Part shown: positions 1,201-47,765 of the stretch, in pieces
Position numbering within the stretch: the first letter of the stretch is position 1
Layout of the letters: each line of letters begins with the position of its first letter
Virus record (IMG/VR): IMGVR_UViG_3300033075_000810
DNA: 64,000 nt
Origin: a virus
Reading direction: 5' to 3' (one strand)
Notes under the pieces: model-generated
Databases searched by the model: none
Told to the model about the DNA's origin: nothing
What the model saw: the letters and a program-made list of their open reading frames with translations, nothing else
Program-made: the position numbers and the translations under genes

Positions 1201-1235
1201 CTCTTGGCCGGGCCTGGTTCAGCCCTGCATCACGA

Positions 1236-1616
1236 TCACGTCGGCCATTTGCCGACAACCCACAGCTTCTTCACCTCGTCCATGATGGCGACGATGGTCT
1301 TCTCGCTCTCCCAGTTCTCGTCCACCACGGCGGTAGCACCCTGGTAGTGGGCACTGTCGCTCAGGATGAAGCATATCATCCTCTCGTCGCCGTGGTAAGG
1401 GCCTTCCTCAGACCCCTTCCAGAACTGCACCATCTCGTCGCCGCCCTCCCATCTCAGGAACGACTCCCTGGAACGGTAGACGTAAAAGGTCTGGTCGTCA
1501 TCGAACTCGACCACCATCTTCGGCCAGTGGTGCAGGCACACACCCAGAACGTCCTTGACGAACTGGGCGTAGTTGCCGCCGTAGCCGAACAGGATGTCCT
1601 CGCCGCCGATCTCCAT
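1236..1616 (-). CDS. hypothetical protein
   Basis: ORF with protein-like composition and GC3 bias, packed between neighbours; no recognisable domain. Confidence 0.5.
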   Translation of the reverse strand: MEIGGEDILFGYGGNYAQFVKDVLGVCLHHWPKMVVEFDDDQTFYVYRSRESFLRWEGGDEMVQFWKGSEEGPYHGDERMICFILSDSAHYQGATAVVDENWESEKTIVAIMDEVKKLWVVGKWPT

Positions 1617-1617
1617 G

Positions 1618-1941
1618 TCAGGACTCCTTTTTGGGAGGGTGACCCTCGGTGATGCCCTTGGAGCGGTAGTGTTTCACCAGCCGCTCGTCTAGCCACTCGG
1701 GCTTAAACCAGTAATGGTTCTTGAAGAAGTCATCGCCGTGCTTCTTCGCCATCCCCCTTTCCCAGTAGGCACAGCCGAACGTGTCGGTGGCGTGGGGGCT
1801 GCGGTCGCCGCAGTGGGGACACGGACGACGGTAGTCCTTCTCGTCCCAGGGGCACTTCCCTGAGTAGAGCAGGTAGCAGCGGTCGCAGATGTAGTCGCGG
1901 GGTGAAGCGTTCTCAAGCTCGTCGTCGGTGAACATGCTCAC
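1618..1941 (-). CDS. hypothetical Cys-rich (zinc-binding) protein
   Basis: CxxC...CPHCGD motifs; start follows the upstream stop closely. Confidence 0.5.
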   Translation of the reverse strand: MSMFTDDELENASPRDYICDRCYLLYSGKCPWDEKDYRRPCPHCGDRSPHATDTFGCAYWERGMAKKHGDDFFKNHYWFKPEWLDERLVKHYRSKGITEGHPPKKES

Positions 1942-2597
1942 ATCCAGCAGTGGAACGCACGCTCAAACCGCTTTTCGGCGGCGTGCCAGTTGTCCAGATC
2001 GCGGCCCGGCACCCTACCAGACTGCTCCCAGTAGTGGTAGGCCAGGATGCTCACCGCCTCATGGCGGACGCGGTCAACCCACTCGCTCGGCGGGCAGCCG
2101 ATCCACATAGGGATTCTAAGGTCGCCGGCCTGGCGGATGTAGTCGGGGTGCTTGTAGATGAGGCCCAGGATCACATCCCTCGTCTGGCTAATCTCGCCCC
2201 AATCAACCAGGGGGCCTATATGGAGCATGGGGACGAGTGGCGGGAACGTGACCTGATCGGGGAACGGCAGGGTGATGCTATCAGGTATGCCCTGGGTGTC
2301 GATCTTGATCACGCTGGGGACTGGGTAGCAAATGCGGCAATAGGGGTCTTCACCGTCGCGGTGGGCACTGCACAGACCACTGGGGGCTGGGATCTTGTAG
2401 CCGCTGATATCCGGGGTGCCGAATATCAGCGGCGGCAAGTTAATGTCTACCGGCGGGCATTGCCAGCCCTCCGGTAGAACTAGGTCTGGAATCTCAGGAC
2501 ACTGGGGGATCGGGATCTGAAACTCTTCCGTCATCGGTTCCTTCGTCCGCCAGGGGACCGGATAGGAACACGGTGCCCGGCGGGTACAGAGACACAT
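1938..2597 (-). CDS. DUF2934-domain protein (start probably internal, near 2537)
   Basis: C-terminal AYHYWEQSGRVPGRDLDNWHAAEKRF matches the DUF2934 motif A..LWE..G.P.G..DW..AE; the N-terminal listed residues look like GC-driven artefact. Confidence 0.5.
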   Translation of the reverse strand: MCLCTRRAPCSYPVPWRTKEPMTEEFQIPIPQCPEIPDLVLPEGWQCPPVDINLPPLIFGTPDISGYKIPAPSGLCSAHRDGEDPYCRICYPVPSVIKIDTQGIPDSITLPFPDQVTFPPLVPMLHIGPLVDWGEISQTRDVILGLIYKHPDYIRQAGDLRIPMWIGCPPSEWVDRVRHEAVSILAYHYWEQSGRVPGRDLDNWHAAEKRFERAFHCWM

Positions 2598-3174
2598 CCC
2601 CCGCGACGGCCCCGGTGATCACAGTCTCCAGGGTCGGCTCCGTCATGCCCATGCGAACGGTGCCGAAGTTCGTCGTCCAGTAGTTTCCAGCCCTGCCGAA
2701 CCCAACGTCTCGGAAGTTGCCGTTGAGGATGTTCTGGCGGTGGCCCGCACTATTCATCCAGGCGTTGAACACCTGCTCGGCGGACTGTTGCCCGGCGGCG
2801 ATGTTCTCGCCGGCGTGACCGTAGGGGTAGCCGGCGGCTCTGAGCCTGTCCGTGAAGGGTGCCCCGTTCTCGTCGTGGGTCATCTTACGGTTGGCCTGCA
2901 TCCAGTTGGAGTGCTTCTGTGCAGCGGAGGTGAGCCGGGCATCGACAGCCAGAGGGGCTAGGCCCCTCTGGCTGCGAGCCTGGTTGTGCAAGGCCAGGAG
3001 CTTCGCTGAGTCCCCTTGGGGTTCTGGGGTGGGGGGTGGGGGACTCGGCTCGGGATCAGGCTTAGGTGCTGGCCCCGGCCCTGGCTTTGGCTTCAATAAA
3101 GAGAGAAGCCACTGGGCAAGAAGTTCTCCCAATTTCCGCCAGTCAGTTGTTTCGGGCATTGACCACCTCCGCAC
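2494..3174 (-). CDS. CAP/SCP/PR1-like domain protein with Pro-rich linker
   Basis: LALHNQARS...HSNWMQ...GENIA...AWMNSAGHRQNIL...YWTTNFG matches CAP-superfamily motifs; N-terminal hydrophobic segment followed by KPKPGPGPAPKPDPEPSPPPPTPEP linker. Confidence 0.7.
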   Translation of the reverse strand: MRRWSMPETTDWRKLGELLAQWLLSLLKPKPGPGPAPKPDPEPSPPPPTPEPQGDSAKLLALHNQARSQRGLAPLAVDARLTSAAQKHSNWMQANRKMTHDENGAPFTDRLRAAGYPYGHAGENIAAGQQSAEQVFNAWMNSAGHRQNILNGNFRDVGFGRAGNYWTTNFGTVRMGMTEPTLETVITGAVAGDVSLYPPGTVFLSGPLADEGTDDGRVSDPDPPVS

Positions 3175-3718
3175 GGCTCAGTTCACGCCACTCGCAGGCG
3201 ACCGGGATGTCGTTCCGCTCGCAGAAGCGGGCGAACTTCACGTCCTCGCTCGACAGCCGCAGCAGACGCTTGCTGTTCTCGGGGTCTTCCAGCAGCGTCC
3301 TCAGGGCGATGCGGGCCATATCGCTGTCCTCAGCGATGGTCTTGATCTGCTCGTTGGTCAACTTATCCTCCGGTTTCTCGGTCTGGTCGGGCGTCAGCAG
3401 GATCGGTTTCCAGTCCCAGCAGTCGTAGTACACCAGATACAACACCAGTTTGCGTGGCTGCTGCCACACCCGGACCCTCATCTCGCTGATCGACTTGTTC
3501 GGCCTTTCGCAGGGCATGTCATACCAGTCGTTGATCTTCTGGGTCAGCGGGTCGTCCACGACAGGGTGGTCGTAGACGGGGAGTGGTCTGCCGTTCCAGA
3601 CCTCAAAACGCCTAGGCAGAGACTCCAGCTTGTCCACATGCAACGTGCCGTGGCCGTGGTTGACCTCGTCCCAGGAGTTAGTCCTAAGCCAACACTCGAT
3701 CCAGCAGTTCTTGATCAT
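3143..3718 (-). CDS. hypothetical protein
   Basis: 191-aa ORF with good coding composition; no recognisable domain. Confidence 0.5.
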   Translation of the reverse strand: MIKNCWIECWLRTNSWDEVNHGHGTLHVDKLESLPRRFEVWNGRPLPVYDHPVVDDPLTQKINDWYDMPCERPNKSISEMRVRVWQQPRKLVLYLVYYDCWDWKPILLTPDQTEKPEDKLTNEQIKTIAEDSDMARIALRTLLEDPENSKRLLRLSSEDVKFARFCERNDIPVACEWRELSRAEVVNARNN

Positions 3719-3745
3719 GCCATGAAAGAGTGAGCCTCGGCAAAA

Positions 3746-4855
3746 TCACAAGCAGTACTGCTCTGGAGACAGAACAGACGCCTGTGTCCGCTGCTTGTGA
3801 GCGATCAGAGCCTGCTCTGCTCTATCCCTTGTCTTATAGTTGCCCACGTTGTACTTGACGCCTTTGTGCTTATACATGGCCTTCCAGAGGCGACACCTCT
3901 TGTCCCAATACACACCCCTGATACCGGAGGTGTTGTTCAATGCTAGGGTGGCCCCCAATTCCTTTCTTAGGAAAGAGGAGATAGTGGACCTGCCGCGTTT
4001 GACCTTCTTGGCGATGCAGCCTATATCACACCCTCTGTTATGCTCTGTCAGGATCGCCTCTTTTTCGGCCTCCGACAGCACGCTTTGCCCAGGCAGGCGG
4101 TAAGCCACCTTGTGTCGAAAGCAATCCCACAGCATGTATGGCTTTACTAGAGCCAGAAGCGTCTCCCATGAGCGGGACCGCACGCACAGCTTATGATTCC
4201 CGTTCTTGACATGACGAGGATACGCCTCGATGCCGAACCGAACCACGACACTGGCGAGGAACTCCACGTCATCTAAAGAGAAGCCCTCAGTGTGGAAGCT
4301 GGCCGTTCTGCCTTTTAGGCTGTTGGTCCCGTCGTCAAAATACCACACAGCCAGAGCCAGTGAGTCCAACTCAAGGTCGCGTGGAACCACCTTGACGCCT
4401 TCAGGATACCACTTCGCTCTCAGTTCGGTCAGCCTAGGGTTAGCAGGGACACGCACGGCAAATCCAGCGTGAACCTTCTCGCCTAGCCTAGTCTTTCTAG
4501 CTGTTATGGTTGAACCTGGGAACTCTTGCTGATGCCAAAGCAGGTAGTCATGGTGAGCGGCACACTGCCCTTTTGCCAAAGCCGACTGTCCGTATTTGGG
4601 CTTGGTCAGATACCCATCACCCAGAAGTGACCCGATGATGATGGAGTGTTGTCGCGGGGTGAATCTCTCCGCAGCCTCCCTGCTGGCTGCGAAGGCTTGT
4701 AAACTCTCTTTGGAGATCCAGCTTTCGTGGTAACTGACCCTTTTTGCGGCCAAGTCGCCTTTCTCGATCAGCCTGTACACCGTCTGTCTGCTGATACCTA
4801 AAAAGGATGATGCTTGCGGCAGCCGCACGAACCCATCTGGTGGTGTTGTAGCCAT
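3746..4855 (-). CDS. LAGLIDADG homing endonuclease with N-terminal HTH and C-terminal AP2 DNA-binding domain
   Basis: GSLLGDGYL LAGLIDADG motif; N-terminal excisionase/MerR-like HTH (LGISRQTVYRLIEKGDL); C-terminal SGIRGVYWDKRCRLWKA...YNVGNYKTRDRAEQA matches the AP2 domain; AGGAG-like RBS upstream. Confidence 0.7.
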   Translation of the reverse strand: MATTPPDGFVRLPQASSFLGISRQTVYRLIEKGDLAAKRVSYHESWISKESLQAFAASREAAERFTPRQHSIIIGSLLGDGYLTKPKYGQSALAKGQCAAHHDYLLWHQQEFPGSTITARKTRLGEKVHAGFAVRVPANPRLTELRAKWYPEGVKVVPRDLELDSLALAVWYFDDGTNSLKGRTASFHTEGFSLDDVEFLASVVVRFGIEAYPRHVKNGNHKLCVRSRSWETLLALVKPYMLWDCFRHKVAYRLPGQSVLSEAEKEAILTEHNRGCDIGCIAKKVKRGRSTISSFLRKELGATLALNNTSGIRGVYWDKRCRLWKAMYKHKGVKYNVGNYKTRDRAEQALIAHKQRTQASVLSPEQYCL

Positions 4856-4926
4856 GCTAGATGGTAAGAGCCTCCCGTCGCTCAGACAACGGGAGGCTCT
4901 TCTGTTTAGCCGGCGTCGGTCAAAAC

Positions 4927-5643
4927 CTACTGCATGTCGTGGTCAAGTTCCACGTTCCAGTACGCCACCCCCAGGAATGCCTCCCAACTCTTCACCCGGT
5001 ACTCCCCCCTGAATAGCTGGAACTTGGGCCTGAACGGCTTCCTGCGGAGCTTCATGCCGGCCTGCTCTGGCGTCCTGTCCGCCTTGAAGCTGTTACACTT
5101 CACGCAGGCCAGGGCACAATTCTCCCAGGTGGTCTGACCGCCCTGGGCACGCGGCACGACGTGGTCGATGGTCAGTTCCTCGGTGCCTGGCCGGCCACCG
5201 CAGTACTGGCACTGGTTGGCGTCACGCCGGTAGATCGTCCGCCGGCTGAAACTGAGCTTCTGCTGCGGCAGCTTGTTGTACCGCGTCAGGAGGATGATCT
5301 CAGGCACGCGGAATGCCTTACTCACACCCCGGATGGCCGGCTCGCCGTCCTTAGGACGCATTGCCGACCAGTCGGCCCAGGAGTAGTTCTGGTAGTCCGT
5401 CACGTCGAGGACTTTGGCCTTGGGCTGGCCGTCCGCGTAGTTGGAACAGAGCAGGCCCATCGCCCGCTCGATGTCGATCACCTTGATCGGGGTCCAACTC
5501 TTGTTCAGGACTAACACCTTCCGCTTCGCTACTGCTGACATCTCATCCTCCTCGATTGCATCTAGGTCACTGGTATGTACCTCCCCGTTAGGCGAGTTGC
5601 TGTTAGGACACCGCGTCCCAGGCCGGGTTCGCTTGACGGGCAA
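4927..5643 (-). CDS. HNH homing endonuclease
   Basis: CQYCGG...LTIDHVVPRAQGG...WENCALACVKCNSFK is a classic HNH motif. Confidence 0.75.
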   Translation of the reverse strand: MPVKRTRPGTRCPNSNSPNGEVHTSDLDAIEEDEMSAVAKRKVLVLNKSWTPIKVIDIERAMGLLCSNYADGQPKAKVLDVTDYQNYSWADWSAMRPKDGEPAIRGVSKAFRVPEIILLTRYNKLPQQKLSFSRRTIYRRDANQCQYCGGRPGTEELTIDHVVPRAQGGQTTWENCALACVKCNSFKADRTPEQAGMKLRRKPFRPKFQLFRGEYRVKSWEAFLGVAYWNVELDHDMQ

Positions 5644-5715
5644 AAAGAAAGGCCCGGCTACACGACCCCGCCAATAAGACGAGGCCCCACACTAATCTAG
5701 TGTAGGAGGGTCCAG

Positions 5716-6399
5716 ATGAGCAAAACGTGGGCTGAGAAAGCAGCGATTAAAAGGGCAAGCGGGATCTGCGTCAAATGCTCAGAACCTGCCAAACCTGGGT
5801 ATACGAAATGCCAGCGTCACCTCGACGCCAGGAAACGAGATGGGGCATGCAGGGAGTGCGGAAAGGAATGCCCTGGCCTGAAAACGTGCCCTGCATGCTC
5901 CGAACGCAGTCGGCTCAGGAAAAAAGAGCTTAGGAGGGAGAGGAGGGAGAAGGGCCTGTGCTTCAGGTGCGGGATGCCCGCTATCCCGAATAACTGCCAG
6001 TGCGAGACGTGCTGGTACAAGCACACAGCCCAGAGACACCTAGGCCAGAGGAGTCTGTGGGTTGATCTAAAGCAGAAAATGCTGGACCAAGGGCACAGAT
6101 GCGTCTACTCGGGGCTGCCGATCAGGGAGGGGGTGGACGCAGCCCTCGATCACCGGGTGCCCCGGAGTCGTGGCGGACCCAATACTATCGACAACCTCCA
6201 GTGGGTCCACTATTCGGTGAATACGCTCAAGGCTCGCTTCTCGGAGCAGCGGTTCCTTGAGCTTGTCTGCACGATTGCCCGGCACCAACAAGATAGCCCC
6301 GGCGTCGATAGCCGGGGCCATCAGGGCTGTCGGACGGTCAGACCGCCAGCTTTTCACGGCGACGAGGGACAACCTTCTCCTCCTCCTCATGCACCTTGA
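5716..6399 (+). CDS. HNH endonuclease with N-terminal Cys-rich zinc ribbons
   Basis: CVYSG...LDHRVPRSRGGPNTIDNLQWV HNH motif; AGGAGG RBS at 5704-5709; repeated CxxC pairs at the N-terminus. Confidence 0.7.
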   Translation: MSKTWAEKAAIKRASGICVKCSEPAKPGYTKCQRHLDARKRDGACRECGKECPGLKTCPACSERSRLRKKELRRERREKGLCFRCGMPAIPNNCQCETCWYKHTAQRHLGQRSLWVDLKQKMLDQGHRCVYSGLPIREGVDAALDHRVPRSRGGPNTIDNLQWVHYSVNTLKARFSEQRFLELVCTIARHQQDSPGVDSRGHQGCRTVRPPAFHGDEGQPSPPPHAP

Positions 6400-6574
6400 G
6401 GTCGCCCAAGACGCCCCTCAGCACCTTGGCGAGCTTCAGATCCTTCCTCAGGTGCGGCTGAAGCGACTTGCTCTCCAGCCAGGCGAGAATGCACTGGACG
6501 CCGCCCTGGAGGAGGATCAAACACCCCGGCTAGGAACCCTAGCCGGGGTCTTCAGATTCTGGTTGTGGCTTACT

Positions 6575-7042
6575 TCAGGCGGCGAGCTTCTTCCGGTGCC
6601 ACTCCAGCACCTGTTCGCACAGGGCGTCCAGGCTGTGGACGACCTTCAGCCCCGGCCTCTCCAGGCCGCACTGCACGACCACGTCCATCCGCCGGCTGTA
6701 CTCGGTGTGGGTTCCGACGAAGACGGGCTTGGGCCTGGGCAGCCACGATCCCAGTTCAAACAGGGCGATGGGGCAAACCGTCTCCCTGGGAAACCAGAAC
6801 AGGATCGCGTCGGCACGCAGCAGGTGGGCGTGTTCCCACTTGATCTGCTTCGTGGACTCATCCGGGTTGTCGATGGGCCACTCCTTGCGGCGGGGGTTCA
6901 GCAGGACGAGGTTGTCCACGCCGGTGAGCTTGGCGACCACCTCCGACTGCCAGTCGTGGCAGCCGGTGATGCCGCCGGCGAGGAACAGCTTCGGCTCGGG
7001 GCCGGCCCCGCTGCACTCCTCCAGTGCCTCGATGTACTTCAC
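6575..7042 (-). CDS. nucleoside 2-deoxyribosyltransferase-like protein (putative)
   Basis: KLFLAGGITGCHDW...LLRADAILFWFP...ALFELGSW resembles Rossmann-like nucleoside deoxyribosyltransferase/Rcl family proteins; weak. Confidence 0.4.
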   Translation of the reverse strand: MKYIEALEECSGAGPEPKLFLAGGITGCHDWQSEVVAKLTGVDNLVLLNPRRKEWPIDNPDESTKQIKWEHAHLLRADAILFWFPRETVCPIALFELGSWLPRPKPVFVGTHTEYSRRMDVVVQCGLERPGLKVVHSLDALCEQVLEWHRKKLAA

Positions 7043-7356
7043 TTCTCAGCCTCCTGCCTCAGCATCTGCTGGACGACCTCGTTGGTCTGGTGTTCGCTGT
7101 AGGAGGGGAAGAGGATACGACCGATCCTCTCCATGTCGGCCTTGCACAGACCCTCCCTCGCCGCATACACGACGATCTCCCTCGGCTCCATGAAAAGCCG
7201 CTCCTTGCACGCCTCGATGAAGTCCTTGGCCGCGACGTTCCGCGACTCCTCGATGGCAATCGCCGCCTCCATGAGGCCCTTGAGGCGGCGGGCGTAGGTG
7301 AACTCAGACTGCGGAACCATTGACCGCCACCTCCTGTCGGGGACGCCTCTTGGCAC
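7039..7356 (-). CDS. hypothetical protein
   Basis: 105-aa ORF with good composition; its stop overlaps the next gene. Confidence 0.45.
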   Translation of the reverse strand: MPRGVPDRRWRSMVPQSEFTYARRLKGLMEAAIAIEESRNVAAKDFIEACKERLFMEPREIVVYAAREGLCKADMERIGRILFPSYSEHQTNEVVQQMLRQEAEK

Positions 7357-8293
7357 GCCTGATCCACTCGGGCGGCTGGAGGTTCTTGTAGAGTTCGGTC
7401 AGCGGCGGGGGCGGCGGACCTTGACGCACCTCGGGGTGCCTGGAACCGCCGGCGTAGACCTGATGCTTGATGGCGTAGCCACGGAACTTGTTCTCGTCGT
7501 TGAGGATGAGCAAGTACCGCATGATCAGGCTATCGGTCGGCGGGAAGTCGCCCCTGAGTACGACACACAGCCGCTCAACAAGTTCGCCCTTGTTGAAGAC
7601 CTTCGTGATGCCGTGGCCGGGGAAAATCTGGTAGCGGAGTCCGCTCTTGCCGGTGATGACGATGAAGCCCTTCTTCAGGTAGCCCTGGTACTGCTCCAGG
7701 CCGATCACGCGGGCCAGAGTCTCCCTGGCCCTCTCCTCCCTGATGTCCCTGGCCTTCTCCAGGCCCCTCTTGCTGGTGATGATCGTCGGGGCCATCCTCT
7801 CCCTGATCATCTGCCGCAGACGCCGCTCGGGGTCCGGGTAGACCTCGTTGCAGTAGTAGGTGTCGTCGGTCGCGTCCCAGTTCCACACCGCCTGCGTGTG
7901 GCGGGCCACGATCCGCCAGGTGCGTTCCTCGGCCATCTGCCGGGTCAGTTCGCAGTCCTGGGTCCACTCGTCGGCGGTGCCCATCCACGTCCACTTCACC
8001 TTCATGGTGGCGGTGCCACTGCTGGACGTGGCGACATAGGGGGACCACCCCACCGCCTCCGATGTGACGCACCAGTCGCCGCAGGTTCCCCGGATTTTGG
8101 GCAGCGTGGTGACGGTGCCCACGGAGACATTGAAGAAGCGGGCGGTGCCCTCGCTGGTGACGGTGAGCCTGGGCATGTCGTTGACCCCCGTCCCGTCCAC
8201 CTCCATAGCGACCACGCGGTCGCCCTGGATGACGGCGGGCATGTACCATGTGCCGCATGTACTGGTGACGTTGTCGGTGTTGGCCGTGATCAT
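7304..8293 (-). CDS. hypothetical protein (start taken at internal MITANTD)
   Basis: the listed 360-aa ORF has an artefact-like Pro/Ser-rich N-terminus; the internal start at about 8293 overlaps the upstream stop at 8295; no recognisable domain. Confidence 0.45.
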   Translation of the reverse strand: MITANTDNVTSTCGTWYMPAVIQGDRVVAMEVDGTGVNDMPRLTVTSEGTARFFNVSVGTVTTLPKIRGTCGDWCVTSEAVGWSPYVATSSSGTATMKVKWTWMGTADEWTQDCELTRQMAEERTWRIVARHTQAVWNWDATDDTYYCNEVYPDPERRLRQMIRERMAPTIITSKRGLEKARDIREERARETLARVIGLEQYQGYLKKGFIVITGKSGLRYQIFPGHGITKVFNKGELVERLCVVLRGDFPPTDSLIMRYLLILNDENKFRGYAIKHQVYAGGSRHPEVRQGPPPPPLTELYKNLQPPEWIRRAKRRPRQEVAVNGSAV

Positions 8294-8294
8294 G

Positions 8295-8657
8295 TCAGCC
8301 CCCCGCGACGGCGGCGACGGGCAGGAAGATGACCTCGCCGGCGTTGGGGTCGAACTTGTCCATGACCTCGGCAGAGGCCCGGCCATCGACGCCGACGCGG
8401 TAGGGCACCAGCCCCTGCTCGACCAGTTCCATGAACATCCGCTCGGCCTCAGCGATCTGGAACAGGTCGTCCGTGTCCCAGGTCACCCGCTTGTCGCCGT
8501 CGCGGATGGTCATGATCCTGAAGACGCCGTGGCGGGGCGGCGGTTTTTCGCCCTCCTTCAGGATGCCCAGGTTGGCTGGAATCTGGATCGGCTTCTCGAC
8601 GTGCGAGGGCCTGAAATTGGGACTCCCCGGCTGGCCCATGCCGATGGGGGTCACCAT
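8295..8657 (-). CDS. hypothetical protein (start at internal MVTPIGMG)
   Basis: the distal part of the listed ORF is GC artefact; the proximal 120 aa are protein-like. Confidence 0.45.
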   Translation of the reverse strand: MVTPIGMGQPGSPNFRPSHVEKPIQIPANLGILKEGEKPPPRHGVFRIMTIRDGDKRVTWDTDDLFQIAEAERMFMELVEQGLVPYRVGVDGRASAEVMDKFDPNAGEVIFLPVAAVAGG

Positions 8658-8683
8658 GACGGTACGTTCGTCCACCCTTAACC

Positions 8684-9058
8684 TCACTTGCTGGGTTTGG
8701 TGTAGTCTTGGAGTTTCTGGAACACGTCGTTGAAAGTGGTGGGCAGCAGCCAGGCGTAGGCGTTCACCTCCACCCGGTCGTTGGCCCGCCCGGTGTCCAC
8801 CTCGATTTTGACGAAGACCGTGGCCTTGTTGGCGGTATCGACGTGGGACCACGTCCTCGTCTCGCCGGCGGTGATGGCCTGACAGAGATCCTGCCAAGCC
8901 GCGTACCACTTGGCGTTCGGCACGGCTGCCTTGAGCTTCAGGTTGTCGTCGTGGAAGTGCGTCTCCTTCCCCGAGTCATGAACGCGAAGGTGCCCCAGTT
9001 GCGTGGGCGTTCCCGCCGCACGACTCTGGGGCACCAGCGTCTCTCGTTCTCCTCCCAT
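8684..9058 (-). CDS. hypothetical protein
   Basis: 124-aa ORF with protein-like composition. Confidence 0.45.
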   Translation of the reverse strand: MGGERETLVPQSRAAGTPTQLGHLRVHDSGKETHFHDDNLKLKAAVPNAKWYAAWQDLCQAITAGETRTWSHVDTANKATVFVKIEVDTGRANDRVEVNAYAWLLPTTFNDVFQKLQDYTKPSK

Positions 9059-9125
9059 GTGCAGACCCTCCTACCCACCGGGCGACGGTTGCATCCATGA
9101 TATCATCGGGGGGCCGAACGTCAAG

Positions 9126-9425
9126 TTACATGAAACGGCGGCGACCCTCGGGACGCCGTTTCGCGTTGTGCCCCTTGGGCTTATGGGCGAGGATTTTGTA
9201 GTCGGCCCCGCAGTTGTCGCAGGAATACTCGATCACCTTCTCGCTGTTCCACTGCTCCTTGACGAACTGGGCGTGGACCAGGCCGTGGCACTGGCACACT
9301 TTGGGGAAACCGGCCCAGCACTCGCCGCACTTGGGGTCACCCACCGGGTGTTTGCAGCCGCCCACCTGAACCGTCTTGTCGTATACGCCGTCGCTGAATG
9401 GCAATCTGCTCATCTGAACCTCCAT
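9126..9425 (-). CDS. hypothetical Cys-rich protein
   Basis: CKHPVGDPKCGECW...CQCHG...CDNCG metal-binding pattern. Confidence 0.5.
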   Translation of the reverse strand: MEVQMSRLPFSDGVYDKTVQVGGCKHPVGDPKCGECWAGFPKVCQCHGLVHAQFVKEQWNSEKVIEYSCDNCGADYKILAHKPKGHNAKRRPEGRRRFM

Positions 9426-9464
9426 GAAAAGAAAAAGGGCGGACCCCGTTGACCGAGGTCCGCC
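9424..9464 (-). terminator. rho-independent terminator (minus strand)
   Basis: perfect 9-bp stem GGGCGGACC/GGTCCGCCC (9436-9444 and 9456-9464), 11-nt loop, followed on the minus strand by CUUUUUCUUUUC; sits directly downstream of the gene ending at 9491. Confidence 0.6.
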
Positions 9465-9490
9465 CCGCGTGCGTTCTGTGTGACCGCTCG

Positions 9491-9709
9491 TCAGCCTTCC
9501 TCTTCCTCCTCTTCGTCCTCGTCGGAGCTACCGCCGCCGCTAATCAGGGCCAGGAGCATCAGCACGACGCCGATGCCCAGGAACCAGGGCCATGAGTCGT
9601 GGGCCATCGTCGCTTCGGTGGCGAGCTTCAGGAACACGGCTGTGTAGCCGGCGAAGACCAGGCAGCCAATGCCTGTGACCATCGTCAGGAGTCTGAGGAA
9701 GCTGTGCAT
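9491..9709 (-). CDS. small membrane protein with acidic C-terminal tail
   Basis: two hydrophobic helices followed by DEDEEEEEEG. Confidence 0.5.
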   Translation of the reverse strand: MHSFLRLLTMVTGIGCLVFAGYTAVFLKLATEATMAHDSWPWFLGIGVVLMLLALISGGGSSDEDEEEEEEG

Positions 9710-9859
9710 GACCTATTAGAGTCAGCGGCCTCCAGTTTCGTTTTGAGTTCTCGGATCTCCTCCATCGTGTAGGGGGCCTGCCCTTGCCGGACCCGCAGCC
9801 AGTTCATCATCTGGATCTGCCAGTCCGGGTGGACGGGTCGCCACTCCGTGAGGGGGATT

Positions 9860-10186
9860 TCACCCCCGATTGGGTTCCTGTCCATTGAGTTCCTCCAGCA
9901 CCCGCTTCTTGCACGCCTTGTAGGCCCGCTTCTCCCGCTCCACCGTGCTACAGTGGCGGGCACAGAGGACTCCCTGGACGAAGCCGACCCAGCGGGCACA
10001 CTTGGTCGGACTCATCTGGGTGTGGTTGACGATGAGCCTCTGGCAGAGGCCCCTGAGGTGGCTCAGTTGGCACTCCTTCTGGTACTGCTCCTCGTCGCCG
10101 TCCGCAATACCGTGCCGGTCCTCGTACTCGATCTGCTTGATGCGGTCGATGAGTTCCCTGGCGTAGGCGACCTGAACCTCTTTCAT
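9860..10186 (-). CDS. hypothetical protein (MKEVQVAYAR...)
   Basis: high GC3 in this frame; starts at an internal ATG of the listed 320-aa ORF. Confidence 0.5.
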   Translation of the reverse strand: MKEVQVAYARELIDRIKQIEYEDRHGIADGDEEQYQKECQLSHLRGLCQRLIVNHTQMSPTKCARWVGFVQGVLCARHCSTVEREKRAYKACKKRVLEELNGQEPNRG

Positions 10187-10443
10187 CAGCACGCCTCCCT
10201 GAGGGGCTGGCAGAGCAGGCCCTCCCTGAGTTTGGCCCTCTCGTCCCGGTAGTTCTTGCGGCCCGGCTCCGACTGGAGCCGGTCGAGGGCCGTGATCATC
10301 TCCTTGCGGTCTTCCTCGGGGATCTCCGAGAACTGCTCCTTCTGCATCAGGTCGCAGTACAGCCTGATCTTGGACCAGTTCATCTGGGTGTCCCAGCAGA
10401 GCTTGGTGATTAGCTCCACGATCACCAGCCTTTGCGACGACAT
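10186..10443 (-). CDS. hypothetical protein (MSSQRLVIVEL...)
   Basis: high GC3 in this frame while the alternative frame has low GC3; ATG at 10443. Confidence 0.5.
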   Translation of the reverse strand: MSSQRLVIVELITKLCWDTQMNWSKIRLYCDLMQKEQFSEIPEEDRKEMITALDRLQSEPGRKNYRDERAKLREGLLCQPLREAC

Positions 10444-10657
10444 AGCCTCGCTCCTTGATGATCTCCTCGGCCTTGCGAAGGACCGTATTGTAGTCCCCCT
10501 TGCAGGGGGCATCCATGACGTAGACGGCTTCGATCCCGGTGTGGGGGGCGGTCGTCCTGCCGTCCGGGTGGCGGACGAGCCTGTAGCTGCCGTTGATCAC
10601 GTCGAGGCCATCGACCAGCAACAGGTGATTCGGACGACCTTCGACGGAATAGATTTT
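10443..10657 (-). pseudogene. coding segment (GTG start about 10657) lacking its own stop codon; apparent frameshift or indel
   Basis: VRKIYSVEGRPNHLLLVDGLDVINGSYRLVRHPDGRTTAPHTGIEAVYVMDAPCKGDY... has high GC3 down to about 10443, then the frame stays open but loses coding signal until 9860; GTGA overlap with the upstream stop at 10660. Confidence 0.3.
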
Positions 10658-10659
10658 CC

Positions 10660-10881
10660 TCACGTCGCGGTCCTTTCCGCGAGGATCGCCGCCTCCTGCT
10701 CGATGAGGTCCACCTCGTCGGGCCTGAGGTAGGTCCGCTTGAGGATGTCCAGGCGGTCGAGGGCGTTCTCGGCGTCGATCAGCTTGTCGAGCGGGATGCA
10801 CTCGTAGGCGTAGCGGACGCACCTCAGGGCCTCTTCGTAGGCCGGGCTGGTTTCACAGGTCATGATCCCTCCGTGTTGCAC
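10660..10881 (-). CDS. hypothetical protein
   Basis: 73-aa ORF with protein-like composition. Confidence 0.45.
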   Translation of the reverse strand: MQHGGIMTCETSPAYEEALRCVRYAYECIPLDKLIDAENALDRLDILKRTYLRPDEVDLIEQEAAILAERTAT

Positions 10882-11078
10882 AGCGGACAGACGGGGACAT
10901 TATCCATCTTCGCCCAGTCGAAGACGGAGTTCTTGGTGCCGGCGTCGTTGGTGATGAACTCGTAGCCGCACCTCTGACACTCGGTCAGTTGTTCGCGTCC
11001 GAGGCACTCGATGACGCGGAACCTGCCCTTGATGGGCGGGTCGTCGTACTTCTGGTGCATAGGTCGTCCTCGACTCAC
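10860..11078 (-). CDS. zinc-ribbon protein
   Basis: CQRCGYEF...CPLCN. Confidence 0.5.
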   Translation of the reverse strand: MSRGRPMHQKYDDPPIKGRFRVIECLGREQLTECQRCGYEFITNDAGTKNSVFDWAKMDNVPVCPLCNTEGS

Positions 11079-11129
11079 GCCCCTGGGGTCAGACCCAGAG
11101 GTCCGCCACTATAAACGAGGACGTTTGTT

Positions 11130-11173
11130 AGGGGAAGGCGAAAACGAACAAGGACCGCTCGGGGCGGTCCTTG
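11130..11173 (-). terminator. putative rho-independent terminator (minus strand)
   Basis: perfect 10-bp stem CAAGGACCGC/GCGGTCCTTG (11149-11158 and 11164-11173) followed on the minus strand by UUCGUUUUCGCC; lies downstream of pyrC. Confidence 0.45.
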
Positions 11174-11330
11174 TCTACAGTGGCGGCGGGGAGTCTCGGA
11201 CTAACCTGCAACGCTCGCATCGTCTCGTTTCAGACCCGTCCACTCTGAGAATGCCCCACCCCCAACGGTGGCCTAGCACCTGGCAAATCAGCACCCGGCA
11301 AATCAGTTTGGCGATCATCCCCTAGGAGAG

Positions 11331-12494
11331 TCACGCCGCGTGAACGCCGGTGAGGCGGTAGCGGAGCCGCCTGCCGTACTTCCAGGGGACGAGGTCAGCC
11401 CTGGGGTCGCCAACCCGCTGCGGGACGTAGTGCGTGTCCGCACCGGCCAGCGTCAGCACCATCTCCTCCGTGGACCTCTCCAGGCCGTAGAAGTCGGCCC
11501 CGAAGTAGGAGCCGAAGCCGGGGAGCTTGTCCAACGAGCCGTGGTCCTCAAACACCTCGGTCAGGATCTCGGCAAGGACCGGGGCAGTGAAGCAGCCGGC
11601 ACAGGCCCGGCAGGCGTGCTTGCTGGACACCTCATGGGGGGCCGAGTCACTGCCCAGGAAGAACCAGGGCTTGCCGCTGATGGCGGCGGCGATCAGGGCC
11701 TCGCGGTGCTTCTCCCTTTTTGGCTTGGGGATCGGCTTGCAGAAGTTGTGGCTCTCCAGCATGCCGCCGATGACGGCGTTCAGGTCATCGATCAGGTGGT
11801 GCAGCGTGATCGTGCCGGCCATGCGGCCAGTGTAGTGCTGGTTCAGGTCGTTGACGTAGCGGACGGACTGCCAGGTCGTGAGGTGTTCCAGCACCACCTT
11901 GATGTCGGGGTCCATCTGCAAGACGGACAGGACGAAACCCGTATTGAGGAACTCGCTCTCGCGGTCGAGAACGTCGAGTTCGGCTCCGGGGTGTTCGGGG
12001 TGGACCGAGAGCTTCATCTTGTTCCGGCTGAGGGCCGGGATGATGCGTTGCCAGTACGGGTGCAGGCCCCGCAAGTTGTCCGGCTGGACCGTCTCAGGCG
12101 GGTCGAAGTACTCCTCCGTCAGACCGCCCTCGCTGTTGGTCGTGATCTGCTGCGAGTGGTCCTTGCTTTCGGGGTAGATTTTCGCCGCGACCGCACCGAG
12201 CTTCGCACAGGCGTCGATGTCATCAGGTGTCGTCTGCGGTGTGAGTTTGATCGTGTAGAGCGGCTGGAACCACCTGTCGCAGAGGTCATCAATGGCCTCC
12301 TCGACAGCCTCCTTGTACGCCGCCAGGGAGACAGTGTCCTTCACCGGCCCCTGCGGGCGGTCGTTCGGGGTAGTGTTGGGCATCAGAAGCCCGTACTTGC
12401 AGCAGCGAGTGGTGTAGGGGGCTACGGCCCGCAGCAGGTCGCCGGCACGCCAGTGGATGTGCATGTCGGAGAACAGCGGCAGTCGGATACTCAT
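11331..12494 (-). CDS. pyrC: dihydroorotase (class II, homodimeric type)
   Basis: DMHIHWRAGDLLRAVAPYT...MPNTTP and FLGSDSAPHEVSSKHACRACAGCFTAPVLAEILTEVFE align with E. coli PyrC (DWHLHLRDGDML...; [24 protein letters not shown]); start taken at the internal ATG 12494 with a GAGGA RBS (the listed ORF extends to 12560). Confidence 0.85.
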   Translation of the reverse strand: MSIRLPLFSDMHIHWRAGDLLRAVAPYTTRCCKYGLLMPNTTPNDRPQGPVKDTVSLAAYKEAVEEAIDDLCDRWFQPLYTIKLTPQTTPDDIDACAKLGAVAAKIYPESKDHSQQITTNSEGGLTEEYFDPPETVQPDNLRGLHPYWQRIIPALSRNKMKLSVHPEHPGAELDVLDRESEFLNTGFVLSVLQMDPDIKVVLEHLTTWQSVRYVNDLNQHYTGRMAGTITLHHLIDDLNAVIGGMLESHNFCKPIPKPKREKHREALIAAAISGKPWFFLGSDSAPHEVSSKHACRACAGCFTAPVLAEILTEVFEDHGSLDKLPGFGSYFGADFYGLERSTEEMVLTLAGADTHYVPQRVGDPRADLVPWKYGRRLRYRLTGVHAA

Positions 12495-12565
12495 GCGAAC
12501 GGTCCTCGGGGTAGGATTTCGGTTACACGGCAGTGTAACGATTCCGAGGTCCGGCGGCAACCCTT

Positions 12566-12796
12566 TTATTCGTCGTCGGTGCTACTCGCCTTCAACATCT
12601 TCTTCCAGAGCCTGTCGGCGTCTTCGGACAGGGTCACATAGCCCTCGTCGCCATCCACCAAACTGGATGTGAGAGTCCTGGCTGCTGTGTCCCCTAAGAC
12701 CTCTGAGGTCAAGAGGATCACCGCTTCAGCGGCATCACTGGGAAGCCCCTTGGGGCGTCTGAGCGACTCAACTAGCTTGTGCAGAATGCTTTTCAT
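12566..12796 (-). CDS. hypothetical protein
   Basis: 76-aa ORF with moderate composition. Confidence 0.4.
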   Translation of the reverse strand: MKSILHKLVESLRRPKGLPSDAAEAVILLTSEVLGDTAARTLTSSLVDGDEGYVTLSEDADRLWKKMLKASSTDDE

Positions 12797-12844
12797 TGTC
12801 TTTCCTTACCGGGCCGGGAACCGACCCTTTCATGGGTATCTATG

Positions 12845-13390
12845 GGCATGAGGACGTTTCGTGAGTTCCTGAGCGTCACGGTGTCTCCGAACGCTCTGCC
12901 TGACATTTTCCCTGCCATCGTCCAGAGTATGGACGACATCCACGACCTGATATCGAGGATGAAACAGAAAGAAGAAGCCCCTCCCCCCGAGCCTAGGGGC
13001 TGGGGGGAGGGGCCGGCGGAAGTCTGTCGCAAAGCGGAACAGATGTTGAACCAAACCATCGGGGAGATCCGAGCCAGCAGAGGCACCGGCATCAAGACCG
13101 TGGCGTGCCACTTCCTCTGCGAAGGGGACGACGGCGTCCTGTCCGTCGAACTGACGGGCACCGCCGTGGCCGGTTCCGCCGACGAGGTGCCCCGCTTCGT
13201 CAAGAAACTCATCCGGCATAGCCGGAAGCATATGTTCCAGGCCGGCATCCTAATAGAGTGTGAACTGAAGAAGCTGTACGTCTCGGAGGTTCCCCTGGGC
13301 GAGGCGGTCGATCTCCTCCAGCAGTTCCACTTCTCAGTTCACACCCACGTCGTACCCCTGGCGATGGACGCAATGGAGGACGAGGGCTAG
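12845..13390 (+). CDS. hypothetical protein (plus strand; listed ORF 12779..13390)
   Basis: protein-like composition; divergent from 12566..12796 and convergent with 13387..13704. Confidence 0.45.
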   Translation, partial: GMRTFREFLSVTVSPNALPDIFPAIVQSMDDIHDLISRMKQKEEAPPPEPRGWGEGPAEVCRKAEQMLNQTIGEIRASRGTGIKTVACHFLCEGDDGVLSVELTGTAVAGSADEVPRFVKKLIRHSRKHMFQAGILIECELKKLYVSEVPLGEAVDLLQQFHFSVHTHVVPLAMDAMEDEG

Positions 13391-13704
13391 TCGTGATCGC
13401 CGTCCTCCATTCGGAAGAACGAGTCCTTCTCATGGTCGTAGACGATGCACAATCTTGGGAGCTTGTCCTTGGGCATGGCTTTGTACTCTCGCATGGACAT
13501 CACGATGCCCGCTGCGACTAGCTCGGGTCCGCTCTTGTCGTGCATCGCCCTGAGTACTTGGTGGAACTCGATCTGCTCCCTGATGTAGTTTCTGTATCGG
13601 ACACGCCGGTCTGGGTCAGGAATCGTTTCGGCTAAAACGAATCGCTTTTTGAGCAGAGCCAGTGTGCGGTCGATGCGAACGGCATTCTCCGCGTCCGTAA
13701 CCAT
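13387..13704 (-). CDS. hypothetical protein
   Basis: AAGGAG RBS 6 nt upstream of ATG (MVTDAENAV...). Confidence 0.5.
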   Translation of the reverse strand: MVTDAENAVRIDRTLALLKKRFVLAETIPDPDRRVRYRNYIREQIEFHQVLRAMHDKSGPELVAAGIVMSMREYKAMPKDKLPRLCIVYDHEKDSFFRMEDGDHD

Positions 13705-13846
13705 TGTCACTCCTTCTTTGGCATGACGTAGACGCCGACCGAGCAGTCAGCCTCCACCTCGGCAAGGATCTTCTGGATCGCCTTGGACGCCTCCTCGGGC
13801 GTCTTATGGATTTTCGGCTTGTAGCGGGTCAGCAGCAGCTTCTCCT

Positions 13847-14737
13847 TCAGCTTCTGTAGTCCGGGTTCCCGTTAATCACCCGGTCGAGGAGGGCATTGTC
13901 ACCCGGTTCAGCCAGGTGTGTCAAGTCGAACGGCTCCCACTCCCTCACGGTCTTGAAGCAGGCGATGGTCATCCCAGGGCGTGCGTAGTCGTCCAGCCTC
14001 AGGTTGTACTGGGGGAACCTCATGTGGTTGTCGTAGCCGCCGCCGTGCATGGTCCGCGTCACGCGGATGTTCATGCCGTTGTAGGTGTCGAGGAGGTCGG
14101 TGGGGATGTAGTCCCCCAGTCGGTTCCTCAGGAGGGTCATCCGCTCCTTGCGTCCCTTCCTGCGGACGTAGTAGAGGCGGATGGCCTCGGAGAGCAGGAC
14201 GCTCTTCTCGTCGCCCCTCTCCTCAAGCCAGTCGGCGTAGATGAGGCCCGCCGCCTTGGACTCGCCCTCGATCTTCTTCCAGATGTCATCGAGGAAGGCC
14301 AGCCGGGTCGGGTCGAAGTCGATGGGGTGGAACACCCAGGCGAAGTAGTCCCAGGGCATCGGGTTGGCGAGGATCAGTTCGTTCAACTGCTTGTGGACGC
14401 TCTGGCCGAACTGCCAGACCTTGTAGCCGCCCCAGCTACCGGGGAACAGGACGTTGCACCACCACCGCTCGACCGGCTTGTACTGCTGGGCCTCCCTGTG
14501 GGCGTCCGGCCCGTCCCGACGCCAGATTTCCTTCCAGCGGTAGCAGGCGGGGCACTCGGCACCGCCGCAGCGGTACAGCTTAGGGACGCTGCTGCTATGC
14601 TCGCCGTGGAGGTAGTGACACTTGCCGCCGACCGGCTTGCCGCAGAACCTCAGGACGCACATCCAGTCCTGGGCGTGTCCGAAGCCCTCGGACTTGTCCG
14701 GCCTGAGCATGTCTTCGTGCGTGGGTTTCTTACCCAT
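13847..14737 (-). CDS. TIGR02996-like repeat-companion domain protein
   Basis: AGLIYADWLEERGDEKSVLLSEAIRL matches the repeat-companion domain signature typical of Gemmata/Planctomycetes; the rest is uncharacterised. Confidence 0.5.
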   Translation of the reverse strand: MGKKPTHEDMLRPDKSEGFGHAQDWMCVLRFCGKPVGGKCHYLHGEHSSSVPKLYRCGGAECPACYRWKEIWRRDGPDAHREAQQYKPVERWWCNVLFPGSWGGYKVWQFGQSVHKQLNELILANPMPWDYFAWVFHPIDFDPTRLAFLDDIWKKIEGESKAAGLIYADWLEERGDEKSVLLSEAIRLYYVRRKGRKERMTLLRNRLGDYIPTDLLDTYNGMNIRVTRTMHGGGYDNHMRFPQYNLRLDDYARPGMTIACFKTVREWEPFDLTHLAEPGDNALLDRVINGNPDYRS

Positions 14738-15164
14738 TAGGGGTTCTCCTGGGCTTGCGGAAGTTAGTCGGGTCGGGGTGGACGATGACCTCCACCCCGT
14801 TGGGGATCAGCATAGCCAGCAGTTGCTCGACCGACATCCGCTCCAGTTCCTCGGGCTTGAACTTACGTCCGCCCAGGAGAATGATGGTGGCCTGGATCTC
14901 GTCCAGAATGCGGTCATACTGCTCCTTGTGGGCGTCCTTGAGCCGGTCCTTGCCGTTCATGCCTCTTGTGGCCTCCATTCCTTCCATCATCCTGACGATC
15001 TGGCTGGGCACTCCGTCCCAGATCATCACCTCGCCGTCCTCGCGGCGGATGACGTGGGCGAGGTAGCGTCTGCGGGTCGATAGGTAGCTGTAGCCCCCTT
15101 CCGCGAGACTCTTGAGGACGTTCTGGAGGTAGAGTTCGCGTGCGTTAGGCTTCTCGTCAGGCAA
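14730..15164 (-). CDS. hypothetical protein
   Basis: 144-aa ORF with good composition. Confidence 0.5.
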   Translation of the reverse strand: MPDEKPNARELYLQNVLKSLAEGGYSYLSTRRRYLAHVIRREDGEVMIWDGVPSQIVRMMEGMEATRGMNGKDRLKDAHKEQYDRILDEIQATIILLGGRKFKPEELERMSVEQLLAMLIPNGVEVIVHPDPTNFRKPRRTPNG

Positions 15165-15366
15165 AGGAGTCCCTCCTCTCGACGCGGGTCAACTGGTTGA
15201 TGTAGCGGTAGCCATTGGCCCCGGCATTGAGACGCCTCGTCTCTTCCTCGGCGTTGCTCTCGCCCCAAACCACTTTGGTGACCACGAACCCTAAGGGGCC
15301 TGTGGGGTCTTCGTCATCAATCCTGATGATGGCGAAGGCGTGGTCATACTTGCTGTTCGGCTTCAA
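15157..15366 (-). CDS. hypothetical protein
   Basis: 69-aa ORF. Confidence 0.4.
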   Translation of the reverse strand: MKPNSKYDHAFAIIRIDDEDPTGPLGFVVTKVVWGESNAEEETRRLNAGANGYRYINQLTRVERRDSFA

Positions 15367-15694
15367 CTCGGCCCTCCAGTTCCTCGATGCGTGCCCTCAG
15401 GGCACGGTACTCCTCCCGGTCCATGCTCATGTGGGCCGGGCCGCTCCCGCCGCTGAAGGTGGCGTTCTCGACCAGCCCGCTCAGGGCAGCATACAGTTCG
15501 CCGGCCAGCCCGCCCAGGGCTGCGGCGACCCTCTGCCGCTTCTCCTCCTTCTGGCGGGCACGCTCCTCCCAGAAACGGTCCTGCTCTTCGTGCTGGCGGA
15601 AGATGCCCCGGATGTGTTCCGTGATCATCCTGCCCGCCGGGGAGTCGCCGGGGATGACGTGGGCCTTGCAGGCGTTGTAGGGTTTGTCGGACAT
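15344..15694 (-). CDS. hypothetical coiled-coil protein
   Basis: 116-aa ORF with charged heptad-like C-terminus. Confidence 0.45.
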   Translation of the reverse strand: MSDKPYNACKAHVIPGDSPAGRMITEHIRGIFRQHEEQDRFWEERARQKEEKRQRVAAALGGLAGELYAALSGLVENATFSGGSGPAHMSMDREEYRALRARIEELEGRVEAEQQV

Positions 15695-15775
15695 ACCTAA
15701 GCTCCAAGAAGACGCCAGGCCGCTCAGGTTGGTGAGCGGCCTGGTGGGGTGATGCGAGTTGCGACGGCGTTAGGG

Positions 15776-35398: not shown

Positions 35399-35779
35399 CT
35401 AGTAGAGTTTCAGGTCTGCGGTCACCTTGGCGAGATTCTCCGACCAGTTTGGGCCGATGCCTAGGGCGGTGGGCGTGTCGGGTGCCACCTCGGTCTTGCC
35501 GGCGTCCCTGATCAGGTAGGTCGTCAGTTTGTGTTCCTTGGCTTTGGCCTCCAGGGCCAGCAGGGCCTCCTCGCTGTCGATCTGGAACACGATGACGATG
35601 GGCAGCCTGAACAGGAACGACCTCTCCTCCTCGCTGATCAGGTCTTGCAGCCCCCGCCGGTAGCGGTCCCTCAGCCACGCCATCGCGGCGTGGCTGCCCT
35701 GGCCGATCTCCTTACCCCTCCTGAGCTTCAGGTCGCGGCGGACCACCAGGGCCAGTTTTGCTTCGCGGCTTGCCTCCAT
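35399..35779 (-). CDS. pth2: peptidyl-tRNA hydrolase, PTH2 (archaeal/eukaryotic) family
   Basis: KLALVVRRDLKL...GKEIGQGSHAAMAW...DAGKTEVAPDTPTALGIGPNWSENLAKVTADLKLY matches the PTH2 family (KMVLVVRTDL..GKGKIAAQCSHAA...DAGRTQIAPGS.TVLGIGP....VTG.LKL). Confidence 0.8.
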   Translation of the reverse strand: MEASREAKLALVVRRDLKLRRGKEIGQGSHAAMAWLRDRYRRGLQDLISEEERSFLFRLPIVIVFQIDSEEALLALEAKAKEHKLTTYLIRDAGKTEVAPDTPTALGIGPNWSENLAKVTADLKLY

Positions 35780-40136: not shown

Positions 40137-40179
40137 GGATGGCTGCTCCTTAGGTGCTGATCAGATTGTAGGAGGGAAG

Positions 40180-40250
40180 TGCGGGATGCGGGAATCGAAC
40201 CCGCGTCTAAGCGTTGGGAACGCTCCATCCTACCATTGAACGAATCCCGC
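40180..40250 (-). tRNA. tRNA-Gly (CCC)
   Basis: GCGGGAU acceptor, anticodon loop UUCCCAA, T-arm GCGGG-UUCGAUU-CCCGC, 71 nt. Confidence 0.7.
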
Positions 40251-40259
40251 GAATGAGAG

Positions 40260-40331
40260 TGCGGCATGAGGGAATCGGACCCTACGACTGAAGTTTGGAA
40301 AACTTCCGTGATACCATTTCACCAATGCCGC
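40260..40331 (-). tRNA. tRNA-Gly (UCC)
   Basis: GCGGCAU acceptor, anticodon stem GAAGU/ACUUC with loop UUUCCAA, T-arm UAGGG-UCCGAUU-CCCUC. Confidence 0.7.
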
Positions 40332-40333
40332 AT

Positions 40334-40406
40334 GGTGCGTCTTGCCGGAATCGAACCGGCGATTTGTGCATGGCAAGCACACGCGATACCACTTCACCAA
40401 AGACGC
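40334..40406 (-). tRNA. tRNA-Gly (GCC), CCA encoded
   Basis: GCGUCUU acceptor, anticodon stem UGUGC/GCACA with loop UUGCCAU, T-arm GCCGG-UUCGAUU-CCGGC, 3' ACCA encoded. Confidence 0.7.
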
Positions 40407-42968: not shown

Positions 42969-43002
42969 GAGTACTCTCCTAGGTTGCCCTAGAGGAGAGT
43001 AT

Positions 43003-47764: not shown

Positions 47765-47765
47765 G

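Follow-up and report, generated by a model that had tools for sequence, protein, structure and literature searches.

The stretch of DNA considered here, 64,000 nucleotides from the IMG/VR virus record IMGVR_UViG_3300033075_000810 (hereafter the window), is part of a source contig of 114,781 bp, about 50 kb of which lie beyond it. Among its genes is pyrC, whose product is probably an active dihydroorotase of class II, the homodimeric type. I propose that the window comes from a huge phage and that pyrC encodes an active zinc dihydroorotase, which, together with the phage's own pyrF, would support the synthesis of uridine monophosphate (UMP) during infection. I put the probability of this reading at about 0.72. 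The coordinates of the features discussed are collected in Table 1.

The family to which the protein belongs can be judged from its profile matches, from solved structures and from a predicted fold. Its sole strong match in NCBIfam is to TIGR00856 (pyrC_dimer), with E=1e-77 and 261.3 bits over residues 4-381. In sequence it matches every solved class II enzyme, with E-values for dihydroorotases in the PDB ranging from 1.6e-60 to 6.5e-34 (Burkholderia 4LFY, 1.6e-60; Vibrio 5VGM, 1.5e-51; E. coli 1J79, 8e-41). The AlphaFold2 model, built from 77 sequences, has a mean predicted local distance difference test (pLDDT) score of 92.2 and a predicted template modelling score of 0.92, and as modelled the protein is a single-domain (beta/alpha)8 barrel matching the solved class II enzymes. 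When the model is compared by Foldseek with the PDB, the top 34 matches are all class II dihydroorotases, with template modelling (TM) scores, normalised by target length, of 0.88-0.94 (0.90-0.94 for 4lfy, 6cty and 1j79), while the dihydroorotase domain of human CAD trails at about 0.75.

The residues on which catalysis depends in this family are all in place. Alignment with E. coli PyrC (from NC_000913) and up to 120 homologues shows that the protein keeps the metal ligands H12, H14, K105, H165, H204 and D283 and the substrate contacts R16, N40, T118, T119 and H287, eleven residues each of which is kept in at least 119 of the 121 aligned homologues. The HxH motif of the alpha metal is H12-I-H14. 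The bridging lysine, K102 in E. coli, is K105 within an invariant AAKIYP motif, and its carboxylation is predicted from the sequence. H139 and H177 of the E. coli enzyme, which bind the beta metal, and its catalytic D250 correspond to the conserved H165, H204 and D283; R20, N44 and H254, which meet the substrate carboxylate, correspond to the invariant R16, N40 and H287; and the threonine pair of the mobile loop (T109 and T110) is T118-T119, preceded here by a linker of 9 residues. A sequence-only reading of the window had called the protein a class II PyrC from its metal-binding His and Asp motifs, and had taken missing ligands as the sign of a non-enzymatic protein of amidohydrolase fold. 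Profile, structures and fold all bear out the call, and the ligand set is complete.

If the chemistry of the family holds for these conserved residues, H12, H14 and D283 would form the alpha site and H165 and H204 the beta site of a binuclear zinc centre bridged by carboxylated K105, and this centre would interconvert N-carbamoyl-L-aspartate and L-dihydroorotate. R16, N40 and H287 would grip the carboxylate of the substrate, and the mobile loop bearing T118-T119 would close over it. With the phage's pyrF, and possibly with pyr genes beyond the window, the enzyme would keep up the host's de novo supply of UMP, or free it from regulation, during the replication of a large GC-rich genome. What the sequences show is homology, conserved residues, a fold, a gene context and conservation in related elements; that the enzyme is active, when it would be made and how the phage would benefit are inferred.

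The gene itself looks expressed, to judge from its signals and composition. Its open reading frame (ORF) runs on the minus strand from 12560 to 11331, and the version in Table 1 begins at the ATG at 12494. That ATG is favoured over the TTG at 12560, and 387 residues is the likely length of the product, because a Shine-Dalgarno-like GAGGA stands upstream of the ATG and the N-termini of homologues align there. GC content at the first, second and third codon positions (0.62/0.44/0.87) is typical of genes across the window, and the third-position value is like that of the neighbours. Past the stop lies a hairpin with a U-tract, first spotted by eye and supported by folding (-21.8 kcal/mol, z=-3.95; 0 of 200 shuffles fold equally well); a consensus terminator scan does not include it among its calls.

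The second enzyme is encoded on the plus strand, opposite to most genes of the window. The pyrF product scores 109.3 bits on TIGR01740, against a cut-off of 92.3, and its catalytic motifs ALD, KV, DPKLHDIPNT and GRPIT (D, K, DxKxxD and GRPI) align with PDB entries 3tfx and 1dbt. It lies 39.2 kb from pyrC, in agreement with the sequence-only reading, which had put it some 40 kb away. The same reading had placed pyrB, pyrD and pyrE outside the window, and this too holds: no OTCace, DHO_dh or Pribosyltran domain appears in the precomputed Pfam calls for all window genes, and tblastn of the window finds no match to phage-type PyrD or PyrE, or to PyrB from L177, a pyrC-bearing contig of uncertain origin. 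It is plausible that further pyr genes lie beyond the window. Directly 3' of pyrF and on the same minority strand, at 52397..53011 (+), is a gene for a 204-residue protein that begins like a signal peptide and contains proline-rich repeats as well as a stretch rich in histidine; over 89 residues it shares about 70% identity with a counterpart in L095, a contig described below.

Both genes keep their positions in related elements. Among 5.8 billion proteins the pyrC product has one close homologue, P0002 (52% identity, a distance at which synonymous sites are saturated), the others being about 40% identical or less. P0002 is encoded on a 75-kb Logan contig from ERR3494958 (L002) that is collinear with positions 58..22500 of the window over 26 genes, and its pyrC occupies the matching slot. 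The closest homologue of pyrF, P0122 (67-69% identity), is on L095, which is collinear with the window from 46.7 to 54.4 kb over 12 genes and has pyrF in the matching slot and in the matching inverted orientation. The two genes are thus stable components of a lineage rather than recent accidents, and the proposed role in UMP supply is strengthened by it.

Then there are the other contigs on which pyrC has pyr genes for neighbours. On L176, a phage-like contig with suppressor tRNAs, pyrD overlaps a pyrC whose product, P0003, is the next-best homologue of the window protein. On L093, a contig of 234 kb, one stretch of 15 kb carries pyrF and pyrD together with genes resembling those for PyrE and dihydroorotase; the last of these overlaps the stop of pyrF and encodes a divergent protein of 394 residues that has no Pfam match on record and keeps all the ligands. 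Megablast of L093 against phages gives no match, and its viral nature is judged from gene content alone. Contigs in IMG/VR show the arrangements pyrD-pyrC-pyrE (436 kb), pyrD-pyrC (156 kb) and pyrC-pyrF (196 kb). Clustering of this kind supports a place for the enzyme in the canonical pathway, and the repeated finding of pyrC next to pyrD, pyrE or pyrF, elsewhere among huge viral contigs, further strengthens the view, taken also by the sequence-only reading, that it serves UMP synthesis.

Some of these contigs have features worth recording in their own right. The pyr gene region of L093 (5773..11832 and 20354 onward) has genes for an Acb2/Tad1-hairpin protein and for Cpn10 nearby. Suppressor-type tRNAs, with anticodons tca and cta, are found on several pyrC-bearing viral or phage-like contigs (L176 at 3355..3818; L178 at 15308..15482 and 17619..17993; L179 at 3141..3296), one of which also has a transfer-messenger RNA. 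The presence of these tRNAs hints at stop-codon recoding in those other phages. Among the tRNAs of the window none of the suppressor type was seen.

That the element is very likely a huge phage, as far as its sequence can tell, is argued by its gene content. The window is about 62% GC throughout and has about 116 ORFs, of which most are short ORFans and all but a few lie on the minus strand. Dispersed on the minus strand between 29372 and 63871 are 13 tRNA genes found by ARAGORN (9 of the 13 reach the Rfam gathering score), among them a Gly triplet at 40179..40406, with others clustered at 61795..63871 (Arg, Thr, His, Asn, two Trp and Glu). The genes of the window for translation and RNA metabolism (M24, CsrA, PTH2, Thg1 and L7/L12) are typical of huge phages. 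There is also a protein resembling the major vault protein (MVP), with a long C-terminal coiled coil, which is 64% identical to a 905-residue counterpart in L002 and aligns from end to end, at 38-41% identity, with proteins of three published huge phages (LR756500, LR756501 and LR756503); viral MVPs in gut phages were reported in a 2023 bioRxiv preprint (10.1101/2023.11.10.566534). The phage-like setting claimed by the sequence-only reading is borne out by these features, along with matches to PHROG families and the collinear relatives.

Several observations weigh against the proposal as a whole. The score of the pyrC product on TIGR00856 does not reach the 292.95 bits curated as the equivalog cut-off, and a search with Pfam Amidohydro_1 gives no match. 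The linker between the K-x-Y-P motif and the Thr-Thr pair, counted in the 153 sequences in which the motif could be located, is 3 residues long in 150 of them, against 9 here, and an insertion of 17 residues adjoins the catalytic loop. The absence of pyrB, pyrD and pyrE from the window means that a boost by two enzymes depends on those of the host or on unseen phage genes. As to the element, none of the genes in the 64 kb could be recognised as one for a capsid, portal or terminase. The protein that resembles a head maturation protease, and that over 127 residues shares 35% identity with gp21 of the T4-like phage Syn1, is short and weakly similar, has no Pfam match and finds one weak homologue in a large protein database. 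Close kinship with LR756500, LR756501 and LR756503 was considered and dropped: LR756500 has 24% GC, and the MVP-like gene is the only one shared over 42 kb.

Where the protein departs from its family, it does so mostly by insertion. There are four insertions: 6 residues after N40, 6 in the loop, 17 after the loop and 2 near residue 256. They coincide with the lower-confidence parts of the AlphaFold2 model, and the shortfall on TIGR00856 goes with them. Relatives clear the cut-off (P0002 with 307.5 bits, P0003 with 317 and P0011 with 342.5). Shorter insertions at the same post-loop site are found in P0002, P0003 and the dihydroorotase-like protein of L093. Of the doubts that still attach to canonical activity, the chief one is that the longer loop may alter gating.

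One might suppose instead that the protein is an amidohydrolase put to another purpose, acting on some other cyclic amide or ureido substrate (as a step, for example, in making pyrimidines modified for use in phage DNA or RNA) or active only within a phage-specific complex. Its sub-threshold score would fit this idea, as would the 6-residue extension of the substrate-gating loop, which is unique to it, and the 17-residue insertion alongside, at a site that other proteins on phage-like contigs also use. No pyrB or pyrD flanks the gene, and a gene for a nucleoside 2-deoxyribosyltransferase-like protein is nearby. Set against this, every contact that E. coli PyrC makes with carbamoyl-aspartate or dihydroorotate is kept, the nearest relatives, P0002 and P0003, score above the equivalog cut-off, and on related viral contigs pyrC sits directly beside pyrD, pyrE or pyrF, as the canonical pathway would have it. 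I consider a change of purpose unlikely. A related and still less likely possibility is that the lengthened gating loop and the insertion beside it mark a phage-adapted dihydroorotase, with altered gating or another substrate (it might, for instance, supply phage nucleic acid with a non-canonical pyrimidine), or one that docks to other pyr enzymes of the phage to form a metabolon peculiar to the virus. It is more improbable again that the protein is an inactive passenger, whether a captured host gene adrift or, in the manner of Pseudomonas PyrC', a partner whose role is structural and not catalytic. It has diverged strongly from all cellular PyrC proteins (about 40% identity) and has insertions in and beside its catalytic loop, but the ORF is intact and the catalytic residues are complete in two lineages 52-55% identical, codon composition fits the element and the fold is predicted with confidence. 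PyrC'-type proteins, the dihydroorotase-like partners of aspartate carbamoyltransferase, are without metal ligands, and the window protein retains every one.

A different objection concerns the DNA and not the enzyme: the window could be part of a cellular genome, or of some other large extrachromosomal element, with pyrC and pyrF as housekeeping copies. The want of a recognised major capsid, portal or terminase gene is what one would then expect. A scan of IMG/VR with the single pyrC protein as query finds no relative, megablast of positions 1-25000 against GenBank phages finds no match, and L177, which has a related pyrC, carries a mixed, bacterium-like gene set. A cellular origin nonetheless sits poorly with short ORFans on one strand, with dispersed tRNAs, with free-standing HNH and LAGLIDADG endonucleases, and with PHROG matches and an MVP-like protein common to three published huge phages. 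Moreover, pyrC is at most 41% identical to anything in 185,579 species-representative genomes, and pyrC and pyrF stand 39 kb apart among unknown genes, not in bacterial pyr contexts. Like a change of purpose, a non-viral source is unlikely, and an active dihydroorotase of a huge phage, working with pyrF toward UMP, remains the preferred explanation.

Class II pyrC is uncommon in viruses overall and almost absent from isolated phages, as the sequence-only reading had supposed. Among 50,697 GenBank phage records, tblastn with the pyrC product gives 4 matches, all doubtful: two contigs of 7 kb with the bacterial neighbour rnt, one record of 1.6 kb and one Pseudomonas phage, at least 3 of the 4 looking like host DNA or fragments. 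A pattern scan derived from the alignment turns up 6 distant cases in 2.9 million IMG/VR contigs. For pyrF there are 11 matches among GenBank phage records, mostly short or host-like. The Pseudomonas phage among the 4 GenBank matches to pyrC, an unannotated record of 92.6 kb labelled 'Pseudomonas phage Y5' (OQ572407.1), has at 47230..48258 an ORF that resembles a class II dihydroorotase over its full length; it shares 35% identity with the window protein and may be a phage gene or host DNA.

As to where the gene came from, the same reading had suggested a phylogeny for tracing the donor lineage. The top cellular matches come from groups as diverse as Burkholderiales, Chlamydiota, Melainabacteria, Actinomycetota, Patescibacteria, Fibrobacterota and Spirochaetota. 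In the neighbour-joining tree the only supported group is the pair formed by the window protein (P0001) and P0002 (100 of 100 replicates), deeper nodes reaching at most 45. With such low identity to any cellular protein, such scattered phyla and such weak deep nodes, no donor lineage can be named. The host-like codon composition and the long branch indicate that the acquisition is old.

The remaining genes of the window give some further colour to the element. The LAGLIDADG gene adjoins that of the HNH endonuclease, and the collinear L002 has no LAGLIDADG gene between its HNH gene (74% identical) and the one that comes next; for this reason the LAGLIDADG gene looks like a free-standing homing-endonuclease insertion. 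The sugar-modification genes may have the cell surface as their target, or else DNA or glycans. A metagenome scan with the RlaP-like protein (58..1200) brought up 80 related contigs, none of them the source contig. The window also encodes a dual-specificity phosphatase and a CAP-domain protein, and the nucleoside 2-deoxyribosyltransferase-like protein already mentioned is encoded near pyrC.

Table 1. Features of the window, with positions counted from its first nucleotide.
Feature	Position	Strand	Basis
pyrC, probable class II (homodimeric-type) dihydroorotase, 387 residues	11331..12494	-	Intact ORF; TIGR00856, 261 bits; PDB matches; ligands; AlphaFold2 model
Shine-Dalgarno-like GAGGA, 8 nt 5' of the ATG at 12494	12503..12507	-	Read in the sequence
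Insertion KDHSQQ, residues 111-116, in the flexible catalytic loop just before T118-T119	12147..12164	-	Alignments
17-residue insertion, residues 134-150, after the flexible loop	12045..12095	-	Alignment; pLDDT 65-85
Terminator-like hairpin: 12-bp GC-rich stem, 5-nt loop, then UUCGUUUU	11141..11175	-	About 155 nt past the pyrC stop
pyrF, orotidine-5'-phosphate decarboxylase, 217 residues	51674..52327	+	Pfam OMPdecase, 2e-37
MVP-like protein, 873 residues	15776..18397	-	Pfam MVP_shoulder, 1.9e-25; Vault_3, 8.6e-11
Head-maturation-protease-like protein, 142 residues	30916..31344		PHROG, 3e-12
RlaP-type nucleotidyltransferase	58..1200		PHROG 388, 5e-46
LAGLIDADG endonuclease adjoining HNH endonuclease	3746..4855 and 4927..5643	-	Pfam
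M24 methionine-aminopeptidase-like protein	20315..21079	-	Pfam
CsrA	22294..22488	-	Pfam
PTH2 peptidyl-tRNA hydrolase	35399..35746	-	Pfam
Thg1-like tRNA-His guanylyltransferase	40779..41711	-	Pfam
253-residue protein with ribosomal L7/L12 domain	59057..59818	-	Pfam
Two NAD-dependent epimerase/dehydratases, TylF-type methyltransferase, family-1 glycosyltransferase	22576..23418, 42078..43052, 43003..43647, 44873..45799	-, -, +, +	

What the window adds is a well-supported case to the very large phages that carry parts of de novo pyrimidine synthesis, among which class II pyrC recurs on huge viral contigs beside pyrD, pyrE or pyrF. Genes for the de novo synthesis of purines and pyrimidines are present in many huge phages (Al-Shayeb et al. 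2020, Nature 578:425, PMC7162821). The case is not a first, since published huge-phage genomes already hold annotated pyrC, pyrD and pyrE, and it leaves current understanding unchanged: the category of gene was reported in 2020 and the chemistry of the enzyme is that of textbooks. Its worth is as a clean candidate for asking whether such genes work and whether they benefit the phage.

Phages also carry single steps of nucleotide synthesis, such as the pyrE of cyanophages or pur genes, that supply precursors for DNA. The logic proposed for the window is the same, with the difference that class II pyrC itself is hardly ever met in isolated phages. Compared with the bacterial enzymes, those of E. 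coli (1J79) and Burkholderia cenocepacia (4LFY), the window protein has the same (beta/alpha)8 fold with no adjacent domain, the same metal set (HxH, K, H, H, D), the same contacts (R, N, H and Thr-Thr) and a similar length, and it aligns with them from end to end. It differs in being 34-42% identical to them, in its four insertions and in falling short of the TIGR00856 cut-off, and its gene lies among phage-like genes, while theirs sit in bacterial chromosomes. The protein of L002 is its sister (100% bootstrap), with the same gene slot and the same ligands, but is 52-55% identical and 357 residues long, has a linker of 3 residues and a post-loop insertion of 7, and passes TIGR00856.

The closest published parallel among phages in kind of gene is that of SR-VP_PHAGE_64_16, whose GenBank file, in the supplement of Al-Shayeb et al. 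2020 (PMC7162821), annotates a 'Dihydroorotase, homodimeric type'. Both enzymes are of the homodimeric type, both come from GC-rich huge-phage genomes in which other pyrimidine genes are present, and both bear the YPEGVTTN and FCKP signature of a non-proteobacterial subgroup. The two are nonetheless 37% identical and lie on different branches of the neighbour-joining tree, which suggests separate acquisitions or a very deep divergence. The enzyme of SR-VP_PHAGE_64_16 is also without the loop insertions, and its gene keeps closer company: a pyrD-like gene overlaps it and pyrE is 3 kb off, whereas in the window pyrC stands alone, with its partner pyrF 39 kb off.

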